11,684 nucleotides of DNA, taken from a virus (taxonomy: Duplodnaviria; Heunggongvirae; Uroviricota; Caudoviricetes). This document shows, one piece after another, positions 1 through 8,785 of the stretch. How positions within the stretch are numbered: the stretch's first letter is position 1; each line of letters begins with the position of its first letter. The position numbers and the translations under genes were made by a program. The notes beneath the pieces were generated by a model that searched no databases, had not been told where the DNA came from, and saw nothing but the letters and a program-made list of their open reading frames with translations. The stretch lies in the IMG/VR virus record IMGVR_UViG_2585427784_000006, one strand, 5' to 3'.

Positions 1-591
1 ATGTCTCGAATTTTTGCTTACTGTCGGATATCAACGCTGGATCAGACCACCGAAAATCAACGCCGGGAAATCGAAAGTGCAGGTTTTAAAATCAAACCTC
101 AGCAAATAATCGAAGAACACATTAGCGGCTCAGCAGCAACCAGTGAGCGTCCTGGTTTTAACCGGTTGCTTGCTCGCCTGAAATGTGGTGATCAATTGAT
201 TGTGACAAAACTGGATCGCCTTGGTTGTAATGCAATGGATATCAGGAAAACAGTGGAACAACTGACCGAAACAGGTATCAGAGTGCATTGCTTAGCATTG
301 GCTGGCATTGACCTGACCAGTCCAACAGGAAAAATGATGATGCAAGTAATTTCAGCAGTCGCTGAATTTGAACGAGACCTTTTACTTGAACGCACTCATT
401 CCGGGATAGTAAGAGCCCGCGGCGCAGGGAAACGTTTTGGTCGACCACCTGTGTTAAATGAAGAACAGAAACAGGTGGTATTCGAACGAATTAAGTCAGG
501 TGTAAGTATAAGTGCCATTGCCCGGGAATTCAAAACCTCGCGGCAAACCATTTTAAGAGCCAAAGCAAAACTTCAGACACCTGACATATAA
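1..591 (+). CDS. pinQ: Serine recombinase / DNA invertase of the Pin/Gin/Hin family
   Basis: 196-aa ORF, ATG at 1-3, TAA at 589-591. N-terminal catalytic motif YCRISTLDQ (serine nucleophile) and C-terminal helix-turn-helix region typical of small serine invertases. Lies next to a tail fibre assembly gene. Pin paralogues (pinE, pinR, pinQ) are near identical, so the Q suffix rests on the surrounding Qin-type genes. Confidence 0.9.
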
Positions 592-688
592 AAAATAATC
601 TCGGTGTGAGATGCTTTACGTCTTCCAAGCCCCCTTCCTTGCCGTAAATGGAAAGATACATCTAATTATAGAATTTATATGTTTTACC

Positions 689-1264
689 CTACGGCAGTGC
701 TGGCCATTCAATATCCTGTGCAGTTGACGTATCAACACGGTTCAGCAACACCCGATACTTTTTCCAGGCTTCCAGCAATGAGGTTTCTTCCTCCGTTGCG
801 ATTTCCAGATCTACAGCATCCTGAAGTGGCGCAATATGCTCACTGGCTACCTGCATCAGGCTGTTTTTTGTTTCTTCCGCCTCTCGGATCCGGAACAGTT
901 TTTCTGCTTCTGCATCTTTCACCCAGGCTGTGCCGTTCCACTTCTGAAACTCCCCTTCCGGCGATAACCAGGTAACATTTTCCGGTAACGGACCGAGTTC
1001 AGAAATAAATAACGCGTCCCCTGACGCTACGTCATAAACCGTTTTACCCCGATGGTCTTCATCGAGATGCCACGATGCCTTATCACTGTTGAAAACAGCC
1101 ACAAAGCCAGCAGGAATATCTGGTGGTGCAATATCGGTACTGTTTGCTGGCAGACCTGTATGAGGCGGAATATATGCGTCACCTTCACCAATAAATTCAT
1201 TAGTTCCGGCCAGCAGATTATAAATTTTTATGGTCCGTGGTTGTTCACTCATTCTGAATGCCAT
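689..1264 (-). CDS. tfaQ: Tail fibre assembly protein (Tfa family)
   Basis: Track ORF 689..1270 begins at a TTG; first ATG is at 1262-1264, giving 191 aa starting [18 protein letters not shown], which I recognise as lambdoid Tfa. Its start overlaps the end of a short upstream stf-like frame, as at stf/tfa junctions. Confidence 0.85.
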
Positions 1265-1325
1265 TATCAAGGCTGTTCAGATTGCGGATGGCATTCTCAA
1301 GCCCCTTCATCCCACACCTCTTTAC
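1245..1325 (-). pseudogene. Possible 3'-terminal remnant of a side tail fibre (stf) gene
   Basis: A 26-codon open frame ([26 protein letters not shown], stop TGA at 1245-1247) ends 15 nt inside tfa, the overlap expected of stf/tfa. Upstream it is closed by a stop at 1326-1328, directly beside the stop of the preceding head-tail gene. Positional inference only. Confidence 0.3.
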
Positions 1326-1597
1326 TCAATAAAGATCATTGGCTTACCGTTAAAACGTTCATGCCGTGTGACCGTCCATTGTTGTCCGTCATAAACAACG
1401 CGATCCCCGCGCCGTGGGCGGTATCCCGAAGAAAACACCACCAGAGAGACCGCAGGTCCGGACAGAGCATTCAGCTCTGCCAGTGTTTCTCCCGGGATCA
1501 CAGTCATATCGACATCATTAATCGAGGCTGTCTTTCCCATCTTTCTGACCGTGATCGCATCCATACGCGCTGCCAGCCGGGAAAAGGGATCAGACAT
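1322..1597 (-). CDS. Putative phage head-tail joining / tail attachment protein (gpFII-like)
   Basis: 91-aa ORF, ATG at 1595-1597, overlapping the stop of the upstream gene by 8 nt (translational coupling). Contains a PRRGDRVVYDGQQWTV segment resembling the RRGD region of lambda FII from memory. Confidence 0.5.
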   Translation of the reverse strand: MSDPFSRLAARMDAITVRKMGKTASINDVDMTVIPGETLAELNALSGPAVSLVVFSSGYRPRRGDRVVYDGQQWTVTRHERFNGKPMIFIE

Positions 1598-1913
1598 TGA
1601 GTTTTACCGGCACTTCTTCTGCACTGGTTCCGGCATCTGCCCAGACAACCCCGACCAGCGGCTCAGAGCCGCTGTTAGTCAGCTGAACTTTTCCTGACTT
1701 CAGATAAACCTTCTTACCCGTTTTCATGTCATCCGTTTTCAGCTTAGGCAGCATAAACACACCTTCGGTTATGCCGTCGCCTGTTTCTCCCTGTGGAATA
1801 TCGGTCAGCGCCACCGCAAAAACATCCCCCACCTGCACCAGATCTCCGCTGCTGATGGCTGCACTGGCAACAATCGCCACCGTTTTTCCTTCTTCTACAA
1901 AATTCTTTGCCAT
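1590..1913 (-). CDS. Small phage head-associated protein (DUF2190-like)
   Basis: Track ORF 1590..1958 begins at a TTG. ATG at 1911-1913 is preceded by GGAGA and gives 107 aa starting MAKNFVEEGKTV. Gly/Val/Thr-rich; resembles the DUF2190 family usually encoded just after a major capsid gene. Confidence 0.5.
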   Translation of the reverse strand: MAKNFVEEGKTVAIVASAAISSGDLVQVGDVFAVALTDIPQGETGDGITEGVFMLPKLKTDDMKTGKKVYLKSGKVQLTNSGSEPLVGVVWADAGTSAEEVPVKLNV

Positions 1914-1999
1914 AACTGTCTCCGCACAGCCCCGTTCAGGGGCTGATTTCAGGTACAAAAAAAGCCCTTACGGGCCATCAGAGTTGTTGTCTGCGACGT

Positions 2000-3985
2000 T
2001 TACGCCGTACATTTCACCAGGCCGCGGTGATCAACTGGCGCAACACCAGCGTCAATACGCACTTTCGTTGTCACGCCATCCACACTGAAGCCCTCCATCT
2101 GATCAATATATGGCGTATCCACACCGTTGAGATAAGCCACTTCAATCGTATCGGAGCCTTTGGACGCAGCCAGGTAGAAGGTGGTCTGGCTGTTATCATC
2201 AAGACGAGGCTCTGCAATAACGGTCGCAAAATCTTTCACCGGGTTAATAATACCGGCGTTAATGTCAGCCCCCTTGACACTTGAGGAGCGAATGACCTGG
2301 TTAGCAACAGACTCCATCGCCGTCGGTACCAGTACGAACGCAGGACGAATATTCAGATGACGCTCACCCTCTTTCTGAACGCGCATCAACTGGCGGGCTT
2401 TATCCAGCGATGCCACGTCCATTGCCGCGCTCTCCAGTACGTTTGCATGTTTCGCTTTATCGAACAGACTTACATTATCTGTGGAGATTTTCGGGTTAGA
2501 CGTCAGAATGGCATAAACCAGATCGGCAATAGTGGATTTCGCCGCACGGCCCAGCTTCATCGGGACATCGGTCAGCATATTCAGATCATCATTGATAATG
2601 GCCTGACGGGTGATACTGAACAGCTCGCCATAGGTCGCCAGTGCAATAGTGGCCTGTTTATCTCCGGTGGTGACGTATTTATATTCTGCCCCTTCACGCA
2701 CCTGACGCAGAGCACTGAAGCCCCCCATACCCACACGATGGGCAATTTTAAAATCAGACAACTGACCTTTCCGCGTCCACTGTTCATAGGTTTCAGGGGC
2801 ATCTTCCCAGCCCTGCAGAATGGCTTTGTTCGCAACATCCAGCAGAATATTACCGAAGTCAGACGTACTGTGTGTGAACGCCGCACCGACCATCTGCATC
2901 GGGTTATAACTGGAAACACCAATACCACGTTCAGTCAGTGACATACGGGCATATTCACGCAGGGTCATCCCGTTGTAGACATTATCACGTTCAGTTTTTT
3001 CAAACCCGGCGCGCGCCATCAGCGCCTGGCGGATCCCGTCCCCCACAAAATTACCGTTACCGGCATAAATATGAGCCGGGGGATTTTTATTGGATGGCGT
3101 GGACTCGCGCCCCATCTCGTTCAACAGCTTTTCGCGGGCCTGCTCCAGCGAACATTCAGGATCGGCAAGACACTGAGCCTGCAACGACTGATAGCCGGTC
3201 ATGGCATCCATAGCTGGCTGAAAATATTCACCGCAGTGCGGACATGGCCAGTACCAGCGGCGGCGGTCACCACGATTGTAAAGGGAAAGAATACCAGTCG
3301 TCGGTGGCGCTTCATGAGGCGACTTACGTCGCCATTTGCTGTCGCAGATGTCACGTCCCGGCGAGCTCTCCACCAGAGTCATCCCGGCGGACATAAATGT
3401 GGTGGTACGTTTTGAGGCCAGGGAGAAACCATCACCCTCGCTGTCGATATTCTCCGGAAAACGGTCGTAATCGGTTAAGGCGACAAACCGGTAATCCGAC
3501 GACGACATAATGTTGACCGAGGGCCAACCAATTTTAAGGAACGAGCCATCCCTGAACGTCTTATCATGGACATTATTGTCGTTACGACGTGGACTCATTC
3601 TTTTCTTTACCGCCGCACTGCTTCTGAACGTTCTGTCGAGGCGCTTTTTAGAATGCTCGCGGGCCTTATCTTCGGTCATCTGCACAACGAGCATGTCCGA
3701 AGGATCGCAAACGATGGTATAGACAATCCATCCATCGATCAGACCAATGGTCTTCCCTGTTCGCGCAGGACCAACAAAAATCACCGCATCGTATTCACGC
3801 GATGCCAGGCAGTTCATGGGCTCAATGATGTAGGGTGTCAGTTCAGGATCCCATGGCACCGAGTTACCAGCCCCCTTGGGAACACGCATGAATTTTTTAA
3901 CAGCCTCCGAAATCGGCATGCGACGTGGTGGGGAAAATCCTGCCGATATGTCCCTTCCCAAATTTCGGGCTGATGAAAAACCCAT
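2000..3985 (-). CDS. Terminase large subunit (lambda gpA family N-terminal ATPase); identity of the C-terminal half uncertain, possibly capsid-derived
   Basis: 661-aa ORF, ATG at 3983-3985 preceded by AGGAGG, TAA at 2000-2002. First ~290 aa align by eye with lambda gpA: Walker A-like VGPARTGKT and a WYWPCPHCGEY ... CLADPEC zinc-finger region. The remaining ~370 aa is Ala/Ser/Thr/Val-rich and looks capsid-like rather than nuclease-like. Confidence 0.7.
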   Translation of the reverse strand: MGFSSARNLGRDISAGFSPPRRMPISEAVKKFMRVPKGAGNSVPWDPELTPYIIEPMNCLASREYDAVIFVGPARTGKTIGLIDGWIVYTIVCDPSDMLVVQMTEDKAREHSKKRLDRTFRSSAAVKKRMSPRRNDNNVHDKTFRDGSFLKIGWPSVNIMSSSDYRFVALTDYDRFPENIDSEGDGFSLASKRTTTFMSAGMTLVESSPGRDICDSKWRRKSPHEAPPTTGILSLYNRGDRRRWYWPCPHCGEYFQPAMDAMTGYQSLQAQCLADPECSLEQAREKLLNEMGRESTPSNKNPPAHIYAGNGNFVGDGIRQALMARAGFEKTERDNVYNGMTLREYARMSLTERGIGVSSYNPMQMVGAAFTHSTSDFGNILLDVANKAILQGWEDAPETYEQWTRKGQLSDFKIAHRVGMGGFSALRQVREGAEYKYVTTGDKQATIALATYGELFSITRQAIINDDLNMLTDVPMKLGRAAKSTIADLVYAILTSNPKISTDNVSLFDKAKHANVLESAAMDVASLDKARQLMRVQKEGERHLNIRPAFVLVPTAMESVANQVIRSSSVKGADINAGIINPVKDFATVIAEPRLDDNSQTTFYLAASKGSDTIEVAYLNGVDTPYIDQMEGFSVDGVTTKVRIDAGVAPVDHRGLVKCTA

Positions 3986-3993
3986 TATTCCTC

Positions 3994-4521
3994 CTAGAGA
4001 CTCTCTCCTTCCTCATCAGGAATTAATTCAGCAGCACAAGCCTCGTAGGATTTTTCCTGAAGAGTGTATCGCAGGTCATCAATGGCCTGCTGTACAACGC
4101 CGACGGCCTGAGGAGTCAGGGCGCAATCGCGTTCAAGAACATCCGGAATTGTCTCCAGAACCTGGACGACAGCCTTTCTCATGGACGAATAGACGATGAC
4201 TACTTCATCAACTGGGATGAGTTTTCGCTGCTCCTTTTCCAGCTTGATCCTTTCATTTTCAGACTGGTACCAGTCCTTTCTCTCTTTCGGCTCCATACGG
4301 GATGGATCATGAACAGAGTCTGCTGCCTCATGCTTCACACTAAACAGGGCGGGCCCGACATGCTGCAGGGCGTAAACGGGGTTCCCCCTGACAGTCGCAG
4401 CCACAGGAGTGTTGGCCGCGAGGAGCCGTTTTTTTACTGTGTCCCGGTGAAGCCCAAAGGCCTCGGCGATTTTAAAAACACTCCAGTAATAAGCATCACC
4501 GATCCCGCTCACATTTGACAT
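3994..4521 (-). CDS. nohA: Terminase small subunit (lambda Nu1-like, NohA family)
   Basis: Two in-frame ATGs, at 4531-4533 and 4519-4521; the second has a GGAG at good spacing and gives MSNVSGIGDAYYWSVFKIAEAFGLHRDTVKKRL, an N-terminal HTH like Nu1. Stop TAG at 3994-3996 lies inside the RBS of the large-subunit gene. A cos site lies ~185 bp upstream. Confidence 0.8.
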   Translation of the reverse strand: MSNVSGIGDAYYWSVFKIAEAFGLHRDTVKKRLLAANTPVAATVRGNPVYALQHVGPALFSVKHEAADSVHDPSRMEPKERKDWYQSENERIKLEKEQRKLIPVDEVVIVYSSMRKAVVQVLETIPDVLERDCALTPQAVGVVQQAIDDLRYTLQEKSYEACAAELIPDEEGESL

Positions 4522-4533
4522 AAGCAACTCCAT

Positions 4534-4724
4534 CTGGCAGGTGAAAATCAGGTTTATTTATATATTTCAATTAATTGCAAACTGGTCTAATGACAGGGAG
4601 AAAAAAATATTGTACAGGTGAAAAGAGAAATAACTTTTAATTATCAATAAATTACCAAACATGCTGCCGCCGCCATGGAAATGCAAAAACTAGTCTTTTT
4701 CCGCGACGCTCCCGCCCCGTGGCA
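4534..4724. other. cos site: cosN-like core plus cosB-like TerS/IHF binding region
   Basis: Minus strand reads CGGGTCCTCCCAGTGGGGGTCCCTGCCACGGGGCGGGAGCGTCGCGG, close to the lambda cos junction as I recall it (...CGGGTCCTTTCCGGTG...TTACGGGGCGGCGACCTCGCGG). The 12-mer aligned to the lambda cohesive end is + 4706..4717. Between it and terS: IHF-consensus TATCAATAAATTA at 4642-4654 and two exact direct repeats CAGGTGAAAA at 4538-4547 and 4615-4624. Confidence 0.7.
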
Positions 4725-5083
4725 GGGACCCCCACTGGGAGGACCCGACAGCCTGACAACCGTGACGAGCATCTGAAACAGAGCTTTACATAATGGCATG
4801 GGGATAATTCAGAAGGACATCACAGCATGCCCACACAAATTAGTGTGAGTGTCCTGTTTCTTACTACGCGCAGGACTGACGAGCATGAGGGGAAAATACG
4901 CGAACCGAAATGCCTTATCTTCAGAAATGCAGCCGGCATCCGAACTGGACGATATTGTAAATTCACCTAAATACGAGGCATTGCTGTAGTTGAATTGCAG
5001 TACTGTATTAGCCTTACAGTGACAGAATACGATATTGACTCTGTCACTTGTGAAATGGTCAGAATGGTTAGCAGTTATGGTGA

Positions 5084-5290
5084 TCAGTCAACCACCAGGG
5101 AATAATCCTTCGTATTCTTATCGTGCTTTACTAACGCGGCCTCAATTGCCCTGAATGCTTCCAGAGATACTTGATGTTCTATACATGCAATTACAACATC
5201 CGGGTAACCCATCGAAATGGTGCTATTAAGCATAGTTTTTACACGAACCTGCTCCTGGGAGGGGGCATCAGTGTATTGATCTTTATGCAT
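5084..5290 (-). CDS. Conserved lambdoid right-arm small protein (homologue of the ~68-aa ORF near the lambda right end)
   Basis: 68-aa ORF, ATG at 5288-5290 with GGAG upstream, TGA at 5084-5086. Protein (..[46 protein letters not shown]) and the first ~150 bp downstream closely match the lambda right-end sequence as I recall it. Confidence 0.6.
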
Positions 5291-5585
5291 TTTGTCGCTC
5301 CATTCGTTTGCTCTTCACTTGCGGCTAAAAATATAACGTCAAATCACTCAGCATGAAAGAGTGAAAGTTTCAGCGCGTTTCCCTTACATAATCTGTCGTT
5401 TGTATTCTCTTCAGGCATACCGGAAAGACTAGGTATTGTCACACAACCAATACCATCGACAATCGAGATTTATATCTATTCGGTAATGTTTAAATATAAC
5501 AAAACCCCGTAAAAACGAGGTTTATGGGTAATTTGTATTGTTGAATAGCATCTGATGAGAAATTGATGCTAATACTATAAACATG

Positions 5586-5759
5586 CTAGATTAAATCAAT
5601 CTTGATATCATAGCTTTCAAGACCAGTCATTTTTTCCCGTGCAGTAAACTGGATACTGGTAACTTCTTTCCCGGTCTTTTTCTTAAGCTCAATGATTTTT
5701 TTTGTTATATATTCAGAAATATCTGCTTCTGTTTTTGTTTTTAACTCTTCAATGTTCAT
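5586..5759 (-). CDS. gnsB: GnsA/GnsB family protein
   Basis: Track ORF 5586..5852 has an upstream extension; ATG at 5757-5759 after AGAGGAA gives 57 aa MNIEELKTKTEADISEYITKKIIELKKKTGKEVTSIQFTAREKMTGLESYDIKIDLI, matching GnsA/GnsB. Confidence 0.85.
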   Translation of the reverse strand: MNIEELKTKTEADISEYITKKIIELKKKTGKEVTSIQFTAREKMTGLESYDIKIDLI

Positions 5760-5931
5760 CATTTCCTCTTTTAGTCTGTTATGACTGTCCTGGTACACAG
5801 TAGTGTCAATTATATGGAGCAAACGTATAAAAGATAAGATGAAACATCGCAATAATCAACATACGACGGTCTAAATTTCACACAAACAGATAAAGATGAT
5901 TATCATTTATTATCAATGCATTAGAATCAAA

Positions 5932-6162
5932 TCAATTCAAGAGTCTCATTGCTGCTTCCAGAATTTCTTCTGAAGTTACATGTCGATCCGCTGCTACATA
6001 AATGACTTTATGATCTCCGGTCAGAGATGGAAACCCTGCGGCCATTACAGTAAGGTATGTTTTTTCGCCATTTGGATATTCACGCATGATGGTGTTAACT
6101 CCAGTCATCGCTGGCACTACCACTGCTGGTTCAGAGTTAAAAAAAACTATGATTTTTTTCAT
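5932..6162 (-). CDS. ynfN: Small protein, YmcE/YnfN-like (cold-shock-associated partner of gns genes)
   Basis: Track ORF 5932..6204 begins at a TTG; ATG at 6160-6162 gives 76 aa starting MKKIIVFFNSEPAVV. Sits between cspI and gnsB as ynfN does in Qin. Symbol assigned from memory of length and synteny; weak RBS. Confidence 0.45.
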   Translation of the reverse strand: MKKIIVFFNSEPAVVVPAMTGVNTIMREYPNGEKTYLTVMAAGFPSLTGDHKVIYVAADRHVTSEEILEAAMRLLN

Positions 6163-6433
6163 GATGTTACCGTAGTATGTGAGTATCCATCGAATAGATA
6201 CCAAGCAAAAAAGCTCCCGAAGGAGCCTTCATTTTCACTTTTTTAAATCCAACGACAGACGGCTGGCATTTAAGTATTGTGAAATATTATCAAATGTAAT
6301 CATCATTGATTTACAAAAGATACATTTTGCCCCGAAAGGATTCATGTCAGAAACATCAAAAGATGATGTTCTATACTGGGAACCATGACAACACGGGCAT
6401 CTAAAGTGAATATGGTTTGTAATATTGTCTACC

Positions 6434-6646
6434 TCAAAGCGCCACTACATGAACAGCGGCAGGACCTTTAGGTCCGTTCTCAATACCAAATTCAACTTCC
6501 TGATTCTCAGTTAATGTTTTGAAATCGTTGCTCTGAATTGCTGAGAAATGGACAAACACATCTTTGCTGCCATCTTTCGGCGTGATGAAACCAAAACCTT
6601 TTTCAGGGTTAAACCATTTCACTAAACCAGTCATTTTGTTAGACAT
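6434..6646 (-). CDS. cspI: Cold shock protein (CspA family)
   Basis: 70-aa [41 protein letters not shown]... with RNP1 (KGFGFI) and RNP2 (VFVHF) motifs. ATG at 6644-6646 in an AAAAGGTAATAAT-ATG context typical of cspA-family genes. Sequence matches my memory of CspI. Confidence 0.9.
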
Positions 6647-7009
6647 AATTATTACCTTTTGAAGAAATTAGCCCTTGGGCAGAATGGTCCGAAAAAAAAT
6701 ATCAGAGAGAAAAACCAACAAGGAAATCTCAAGAGGTACAAATAATAAAATTATAACAATGACTGCTTCAGATAAATTTGTAACAAACCAGAACACCATT
6801 AACGCATGATTAACCACCCATAGCAAGGATTACTTTTGTAAAGAAAAAAACAGCAATGAAAGAATAGCTTTATTTATTAATAATAACGTGTCATTCTGAT
6901 TAAGACCTTTTATCTTACCCTTAAGATTTCAGGAATTTTGGCTCATGGAAGAGTCCTTTTTATTTAAATTTTACATTCCGCGATGTAAATGTTCCGATTT
7001 AATATTACC

Positions 7010-8033
<1,024 letters not shown>

Positions 8034-8037
<4 letters not shown>

Positions 8038-8345
8038 ATATATTTATGATGAGGACGCTCGTGCTTATTGGCAGGATTTTCAATCTTAAAGGAGTACTGA
8101 TGCTGCAGATAAGACTCAACTTTTTCTGACAATTTTTCTGCTACTTCCAGGAAGACTTGCCGGACGCTCCTTCTGGCTGCTGCCTCATAAAACTCCAGCG
8201 CAGCTCCTTCAACACGGTCCATGGCGACATCCAGGTCAAAAATTTCACCGTCAAAGCGTTCCTTGTCCTGTAAGGCTACAGTTACCGTAACTTTATTCTC
8301 AAAATTACGGACTCCTTTCACAACCAGTTCATAGTCTTGAGTCAT
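8034..8345 (-). CDS. ydfR: YdfR-family protein of unknown function, encoded between holin and endolysin
   Basis: 103-aa ORF MTQDYELVVKGVRNFENKVTV..., ATG at 8343-8345 preceded by GAGGAGAG, stop overlapping the endolysin start. Matches my memory of K-12 YdfR. Confidence 0.75.
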
Positions 8346-8349
8346 TGGA

Positions 8350-8565
8350 TTACTCTCCTCTCGCAGCCTTACGCCTGTCTTCTTTAATCTTGAAATAAAG
8401 ATTTGTCAGATACGTCAGCAGGCCAAAAACCAGGCTACCCAGCACACCGATTGCAGCCCACTGTGACGGAGTTACTTTATCGAGTAACTGCAATGCCCAG
8501 AAACCAGCATTCCCCGCCGATGTGCCATAGGCAACACCTGTTGTTAACTTATCCATTGATTTCAT
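8350..8565 (-). CDS. essQ: Class II holin (S21-like pinholin)
   Basis: Track ORF 8350..8643 has an upstream extension; ATG at 8563-8565 preceded by GGTGAGGA gives 71 aa [71 protein letters not shown] with two transmembrane segments and a basic C-terminus. Pairs with the SAR endolysin. Confidence 0.85.
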
Positions 8566-8785
8566 ATCCTCACCCCGATGTACACGGATGGTGCAATATG
8601 TTTGAAAAAGATCGGAGTCTACGGGGTAGTTTTGACAGCACACGTTGTTCTCAACGGCGCTAAAGAAACATACACATTAAAAATGTGAGTAATTATTTTG
8701 AAAGAAAGTCATATATAAAATAATAATACGAGAAATGTTTTCATATTTAGTGTACTGTATACGGCCATTTATACAGGAAAAGCCT

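Follow-up and report, generated by a model that had tools for sequence, protein, structure and literature searches.

The closest described systems are the cryptic prophage Qin of Escherichia coli K-12 and the phage mEp460_ev081 (LR597641.1; mEp460/cdtI group). Qin is without most of its replication, head and tail genes, and the phage mEp460_ev081, which is functional, has genes that resemble dicB, dicF, dicAC and rem of Qin (PMC10448788). The gene order of Qin in K-12 is ydfJ - ynfT - ydfK - pinQ - tfaQ - stfQ - nohA ... cspI - rzpQ - rrrQ - essQ - cspB - ydfT - ydfU. In the undeleted mEp460_ev081 genome, the late genes run in the order cement, Hc1, Z, U, V, G, T, H, M, L, K, I, J, lom, stf, tfa and serine recombinase.

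The window, by which we mean the whole stretch of viral DNA that was analysed (11,684 nt), derives from contig JORW01000047.1 of the draft assembly GCA_000713395.1, and the junction described below is known from the assembled sequence, not from reads. The window is collinear with Qin of K-12 MG1655, with 97.7-98.7% identity over pinQ-tfaQ (1-1271) and over gnsB to ydfU (5581-11684); it differs in 1272-5580 and lacks 258 nt of the K-12 prophage at 10035/10036. The missing stretch takes in the whole of ynfS and the final bases of cspF, a further small deletion specific to this strain. Beyond the pin start the contig continues for 318 nt, and the ydfK/ydfJ flank is not on it. The prophages of the close relatives PK8566, NH-21 and H5 adjoin ydfJ.

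We read the window, with a probability of about 0.9, as a strain-specific allele of the Qin cryptic prophage that descends from an ev081-type ancestor and lost ~15.05-15.12 kb by illegitimate recombination mediated by an ATA triplet. The ancestor would have carried the morphogenesis genes of the functional phage mEp460_ev081. Microhomology-mediated recombination would then have joined nucleotide 46 of gene Z to the stf stop codon within the shared triplet, leaving behind non-functional debris of the late operon. This debris consists of the intact cement, FII-like connector, tfa and pin genes, together with the ribosome-binding site and start codon of Z, which now open a chimeric frame of 21 codons. 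The features of the remnant are collected in the table.

Table. Features of the late-gene remnant, in window coordinates.
Feature	Position	Strand	Basis and remarks
pinQ-type serine recombinase gene, intact	1..591	+	196 aa; Pfam Resolvase 3e-36 and HTH_7
tfaQ-type tail fibre assembly gene, intact	689..1264	-	191 aa; Pfam Caudo_TAP (PF02413) 3.1e-44; ATG 1264-1262
Chimeric 21-codon ORF	1245..1310	-	ATG 1310; 15 gpZ codons and 6 out-of-frame codons
Deletion junction, 3-nt microhomology ATA	1265..1267	-	Three-way alignments
AAGAGG, native ribosome-binding site of gene Z	1317..1322	-	6 nt before ATG 1310; read from the sequence
Head-tail connector gene (FII-like; 'Hc1 head closure'), intact	1322..1597	-	91 aa; Pfam Gifsy-2 PF13856 1.8e-17
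Cement/decoration protein gene, intact	1590..1913	-	107 aa; Phage_cement_2 (formerly DUF2190) PF09956 2.7e-20
Terminator-like hairpin and T-run, between capsid and cement genes	1953..1976	-	Terminator scan; stem 1976→1963, TTTTTTGTAC tail
In-frame fusion of TerL N-terminus to capsid C-terminus ('first scar')	2000..3985	-	661 aa; Pfam GpA_ATPase residues 40-263, Phage_capsid_4 residues 363-658
DUF1441 small-terminase-like gene	4533→3994	-	Upstream of the TerL/capsid fusion in transcription order

All genes of the scarred region, from DUF1441 through tfa, lie on the minus strand, with pin alone on the plus strand. Between the head-completion genes and tfa the window contains no tail genes. The pin gene is collinear with K-12 pinQ (97.7% identity), and tfa, with the Caudo_TAP domain and the full length of the tfaQ genes of K-12 and H5, is a complete member of its family; both are intact. 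A reading of this DNA from its sequence alone had proposed that the deletion left these two genes. The FII-like connector ends in a TAA stop (1324-1322) and equals its phage homologues in length, while its match to Phage_attach, the lambda FII family, is weak (0.0018) and falls below the curated cutoff. It shares 8 nt (1590-1597) with the cement gene. The sequence-only reading had both this overlap and the stop at 1322 right, and also recognized the DUF2190-like gene; the end that it gave to that gene, 1958, corresponds to an upstream TTG, and the homologues start at the ATG at 1913.

No minus-strand promoter-like site was found by a promoter scan of 550-2100, so that transcription of these genes, if any, would come from upstream. 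The equivalent in mEp460 of the hairpin between the capsid and cement genes is an annotated rho-independent terminator. Another terminator-like hairpin lies on the minus strand inside the tfa coding sequence (1014-1027) and is probably a chance occurrence, since the two terminator-like hits in the scanned region are close to the 1.3 expected from shuffled sequence.

Comparison with phage genomes separates the two sides of the deletion. In a megablast search with 1200-2000, genomes of the mEp460 family align to 1265-2000 at 98.6-99.6% identity, and lambda-type stf/tfa sequences align to 1200-1274. Within mEp460_ev081, window 3193→1265 corresponds to 5118-7046 (99.79%), a segment made up of the 3' part of the capsid gene, the cement gene, the FII-like gene and the beginning of the gpZ gene (46 nt); window 1274→1 corresponds to 22152-23426 (97.8%), comprising the stf stop, tfa and pin. 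Three-way alignments of the junction region, in which the window was set against mEp460, lambda, E. coli NH-21 and E. coli H5, place the crossover precisely. Identity on the Z side is exact down to 1265 and on the stf/tfa side up to 1267, with an imperfect CTTG(C)ATA around the shared ATA (1267-1265). The left breakpoint is 46 nt into gene Z, not at the FII-like stop as had been proposed. Nor does the right one lie 27 codons from the end of stf; it is the stf stop codon itself, with stf identity ending 3 nt upstream of the tfa ATG.

Measured as the distance between the two ATA triplets, the missing DNA amounts to 15,116 bp relative to mEp460_ev081, and to 15,050 bp relative to the Qin-locus prophage of E. 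coli NH-21. The lost genes are Z from codon 16 onward, U, V, G, T, H, M, L, K, I, J and lom, together with the whole of stf. The earlier claim that a tail module of about 15 kb is missing between the head-completion genes and tfa is borne out in its size and position. It was also described as a single deletion, which cannot be demonstrated from the one junction that can be seen, the last. In intact relatives, the FII-like gene and tfa are not adjacent; the genes from Z through stf intervene there.

The two sides of the junction differ somewhat in their similarity to the reference genomes. The tfa-pin side is 97.4-97.8% identical to NH-21 and mEp460_ev081, compared with 98.9-99.8% for the head side, indicating that the true parent had a somewhat different tfa/pin allele. 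A much closer match for this side is found in E. coli H5, with 3 mismatches in the 1267 nt of window 1..1267; H5 itself is without Z. On this comparison, an H5-like tfa/pin allele and head and tail genes like those of ev081 would have come together in the exact parent. As a reference for the right side, mEp460 proper (NC_019716) was dropped because it has a different, tfa-less fibre gene, and mEp460_ev081 and NH-21 were used instead. There is no annotated tfa in mEp460 (NC_019716.1). An unannotated stretch of 123 nt just downstream of its fibre gene (22732-22854) is 90% identical to the 3' end of tfa (window 703-825), and resembles a remnant of tfa, carried by a functional phage.

The join contains no inserted DNA, no IS element and no long repeat, and, CTTG(C)ATA aside, its flanks are unrelated. 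A seamless join at a 3-nt identity points to a microhomology-mediated illegitimate deletion, which probably took place by end joining or replication slippage. The mechanism is put no more firmly than this because a blunt join can show a microhomology of only 3 nt by chance. We also infer that the loss occurred in one step. An undeleted sister genome of the same lineage was not found.

A possible, if clearly less likely, course of events is that two or more successive nested deletions removed the tail module and that the visible junction is only the last of them. At the same locus, PK8566 displays several internal junctions (V' :: 636-nt tape-measure fragment :: stf'), a pattern of stepwise erosion, and the first scar of the window lacks 242 nt that are still present in NH-21, which is compatible with a nested second deletion. 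The multi-junction state of PK8566 and the extra 242 nt of NH-21 show that the Qin locus does lose DNA stepwise. For the present junction, however, no intermediate genome with either breakpoint was found, and one event is the more parsimonious account.

An assembly artefact, in which the draft contig wrongly joins two prophage fragments, appears very improbable. The assembly is indeed a draft, the contig comes to its end 318 nt beyond pin, and the junction is found in no other genome searched. Nevertheless, the two sides share only 3 nt at the join (7/8 with one gap), much less than the k-mer of any assembler; both flanks are collinear with Qin, and two samples with contig JORW01000047.1 are counted in the collection.

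Recombination by the adjacent invertase or between homologous segments carries slightly less weight still. An intact pin gene lies ~700 nt away, which brings to mind its invertase acting on crossover sites, and E. coli genomes contain several copies of tail genes (a median of 3 places per genome match window 600-4600), which could allow homologous recombination between two prophages. Scanning for the invertase crossover core (AAACCNNGGTTT, up to 2 mismatches) gave no match within 1-3700, and the matches in the whole window stay at chance level; a Pin-mediated deletion was dismissed on these grounds. Against homologous recombination stands the lack of homology between the parental sequences at the breakpoints beyond CTTG(C)ATA.

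Between the FII-like gene and tfa, the open frame 1325→1245 consists of 26 sense codons and a TGA, and extends 20 nt into tfa in another reading frame. An open frame of 27 codons is unremarkable by chance, and the evidence for its origin is homology, not openness. Its real start is the ATG at 1310 and its stop the TGA at 1247-1245. From 1310 to 1265, all 46 nucleotides agree with the gpZ gene's 5' end in mEp460 phages and E. coli NH-21, and in a short-peptide BLAST search residues 1-15 match the N-terminus of mEp460 and NH-21 gpZ at 15/15 positions. The location agrees with this assignment: the ORF lies directly 3' of the FII-like connector, with the same spacer and ribosome-binding site as in mEp460, mEp460_ev081 and NH-21 (the AAGAGG motif itself is the same in mEp460 and NH-21). 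In full-length relatives, Z has 192 aa and matches Minor_tail_Z (PF06763) at 1.7e-76. With 15 of 192 codons left, the ORF falls well short of the full-length domain (~190 aa), and reads as a gpZ remnant rather than a functional member of the Z family. Its last 6 codons run out of frame across the tfa start, up to a stop 17 nt inside tfa.

The sequence-only reading had taken the frame 1245-1325 for a tail-fibre remnant that overlaps the tfa start as the 3' end of stf would. A lambda-type stf ends in the pentamer TAATG, with a 1-nt overlap with the tfa ATG. This pentamer persists in the window at 1266-1262, but the short ORF reads past it in a different phase and takes up 20 nt of tfa, including its stop at 1247-1245. 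Comparison of the peptide with Stf C-termini, the check which that reading had suggested, gave no match to Stf of lambda, NH-21 or H5 (blastp-short; the lambda-type C-terminus is ...NIAFNYIVRLA), and against mEp460 Stf just a 5-residue chance match with an E value of about 0.5. This lack of similarity is one of the two observations that the sequence-only reading had itself named as counting against it. The frame is composed of 15 gpZ codons followed by out-of-frame tfa sequence, and of stf at most the stop codon survives. A deletion with its left end at the FII-like stop and its right end 27 codons short of the stf end, which would make 1245-1325 the last 26 fibre codons, is the least probable of all the explanations: the frame is open, overlaps the tfa start and retains TAATG, but it continues from the upstream gene into Z exactly as in intact phages, has no resemblance to the Stf C-terminus, passes the pentamer out of phase, meets stf identity only up to 3 nt from the tfa ATG, and would need an stf allele with the genuine 3' end ...AACAGCCTTGATAATG. 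The hypothesis of an Stf C-terminus was ruled out by the DNA alignment and the peptide BLAST together. The region is correctly annotated as a fragment of a Z pseudogene that is fused to the start of tfa, rather than as an stf remnant, and it has little import beyond that.

The deletion would also have consequences for tfa. The native 3' end of stf contains a GAGG 8 nt upstream of the tfa ATG. It is absent at this place in the window because CAGCCTTGATA replaces GAGGCTTGCATA. With stf and this motif gone, tfa is left without both its partner fibre gene and its usual translation signal, and is probably poorly translated now. A very doubtful alternative is that the ribosome-binding site of Z and the chimeric ORF serve as a leader, with termination at the TGA (1247-1245) allowing re-initiation at the tfa ATG (1264) or at Met5 (1252-1250). 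Expression of a domesticated Tfa chaperone and of Pin would thereby be kept up, serving the fibres of other resident prophages. If this were true, the scar would not be neutral debris.

The first scar, at 3192/3193 on the minus strand, shows a TA microhomology and leaves the parts of TerL and capsid protein in one frame of 661 aa. At the same place NH-21 has 242 nt more, in two out-of-frame pseudogenes, and PK8566 carries a third, different TerL'::capsid junction in a 670-aa ORF, giving three distinct TerL/capsid junctions in three strains. The TerL remnant of the window (3216-3889) is only ~73% identical to TerL of mEp460 and mEp460_ev081, compared with 99.8% for the segment from capsid to Z' (1265-3193). 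This sharp contrast in identity indicates that the packaging genes of the ancestral phage were of the Qin type and its head and tail genes of the mEp460 type.

Searches for the tail-module junction found it in no other sequence. A 181-nt probe gave no junction-spanning match in 5,426 complete E. coli genomes, and the exact 24-nt junction pattern was present neither in the GTDB species representatives nor in the JGI metagenomes. An exact-protein look-up of the 661-aa TerL/capsid fusion returned the source contig only.

Set beside the known systems, the window shares its gene order with mEp460_ev081, which differs in having the complete 15.1-kb Z-to-stf block and intact TerL, portal and protease-capsid genes. 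The prophage of NH-21 (NZ_CP148034.1) occupies the Qin locus next to ydfJ and has, like the window, a Qin-type DUF1441 gene and a TerL remnant joined to a capsid remnant, at 98.9-99.4% identity to the window. It still has the complete tail module (Z-J, lom and an stf of 3,024 nt) along with tfaQ and pinQ. The minor tail gene L of NH-21 (10506-11204) has an internal stop, in addition to the TerL/capsid scar, and this prophage is also defective despite its tail module.

PK8566 and H5 belong to the same locus and sequence family and have likewise lost tail genes, but with different breakpoints. In PK8566, Z, U and 96 nt of V are joined to a tape-measure fragment and the 3' part of stf; in H5, TerL' is joined directly to the 3' end of J, and fragments of lom and stf are kept. 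K-12 Qin resembles the window in having lost the tail module and kept tfaQ and pinQ. It differs in that a 963-nt stfQ fragment abuts nohA and that it has no cement, FII-like, capsid or TerL remnants, whereas DUF1441, TerL'::capsid', cement, FII-like and Z' are still present in the window, from which stf is missing altogether. The scars of the window and of K-12 Qin are independent. Different scars at the same locus in PK8566, H5 and K-12 are consistent with ongoing independent decay. The junction in the window is an ordinary scar of known prophage decay, the familiar independent and progressive erosion of a cryptic prophage. Together, the window, NH-21, PK8566, H5 and K-12 offer a tidy example of independent erosion of one locus in different E. 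coli lineages through deletions at short microhomologies, with mEp460_ev081 as the undeleted reference.
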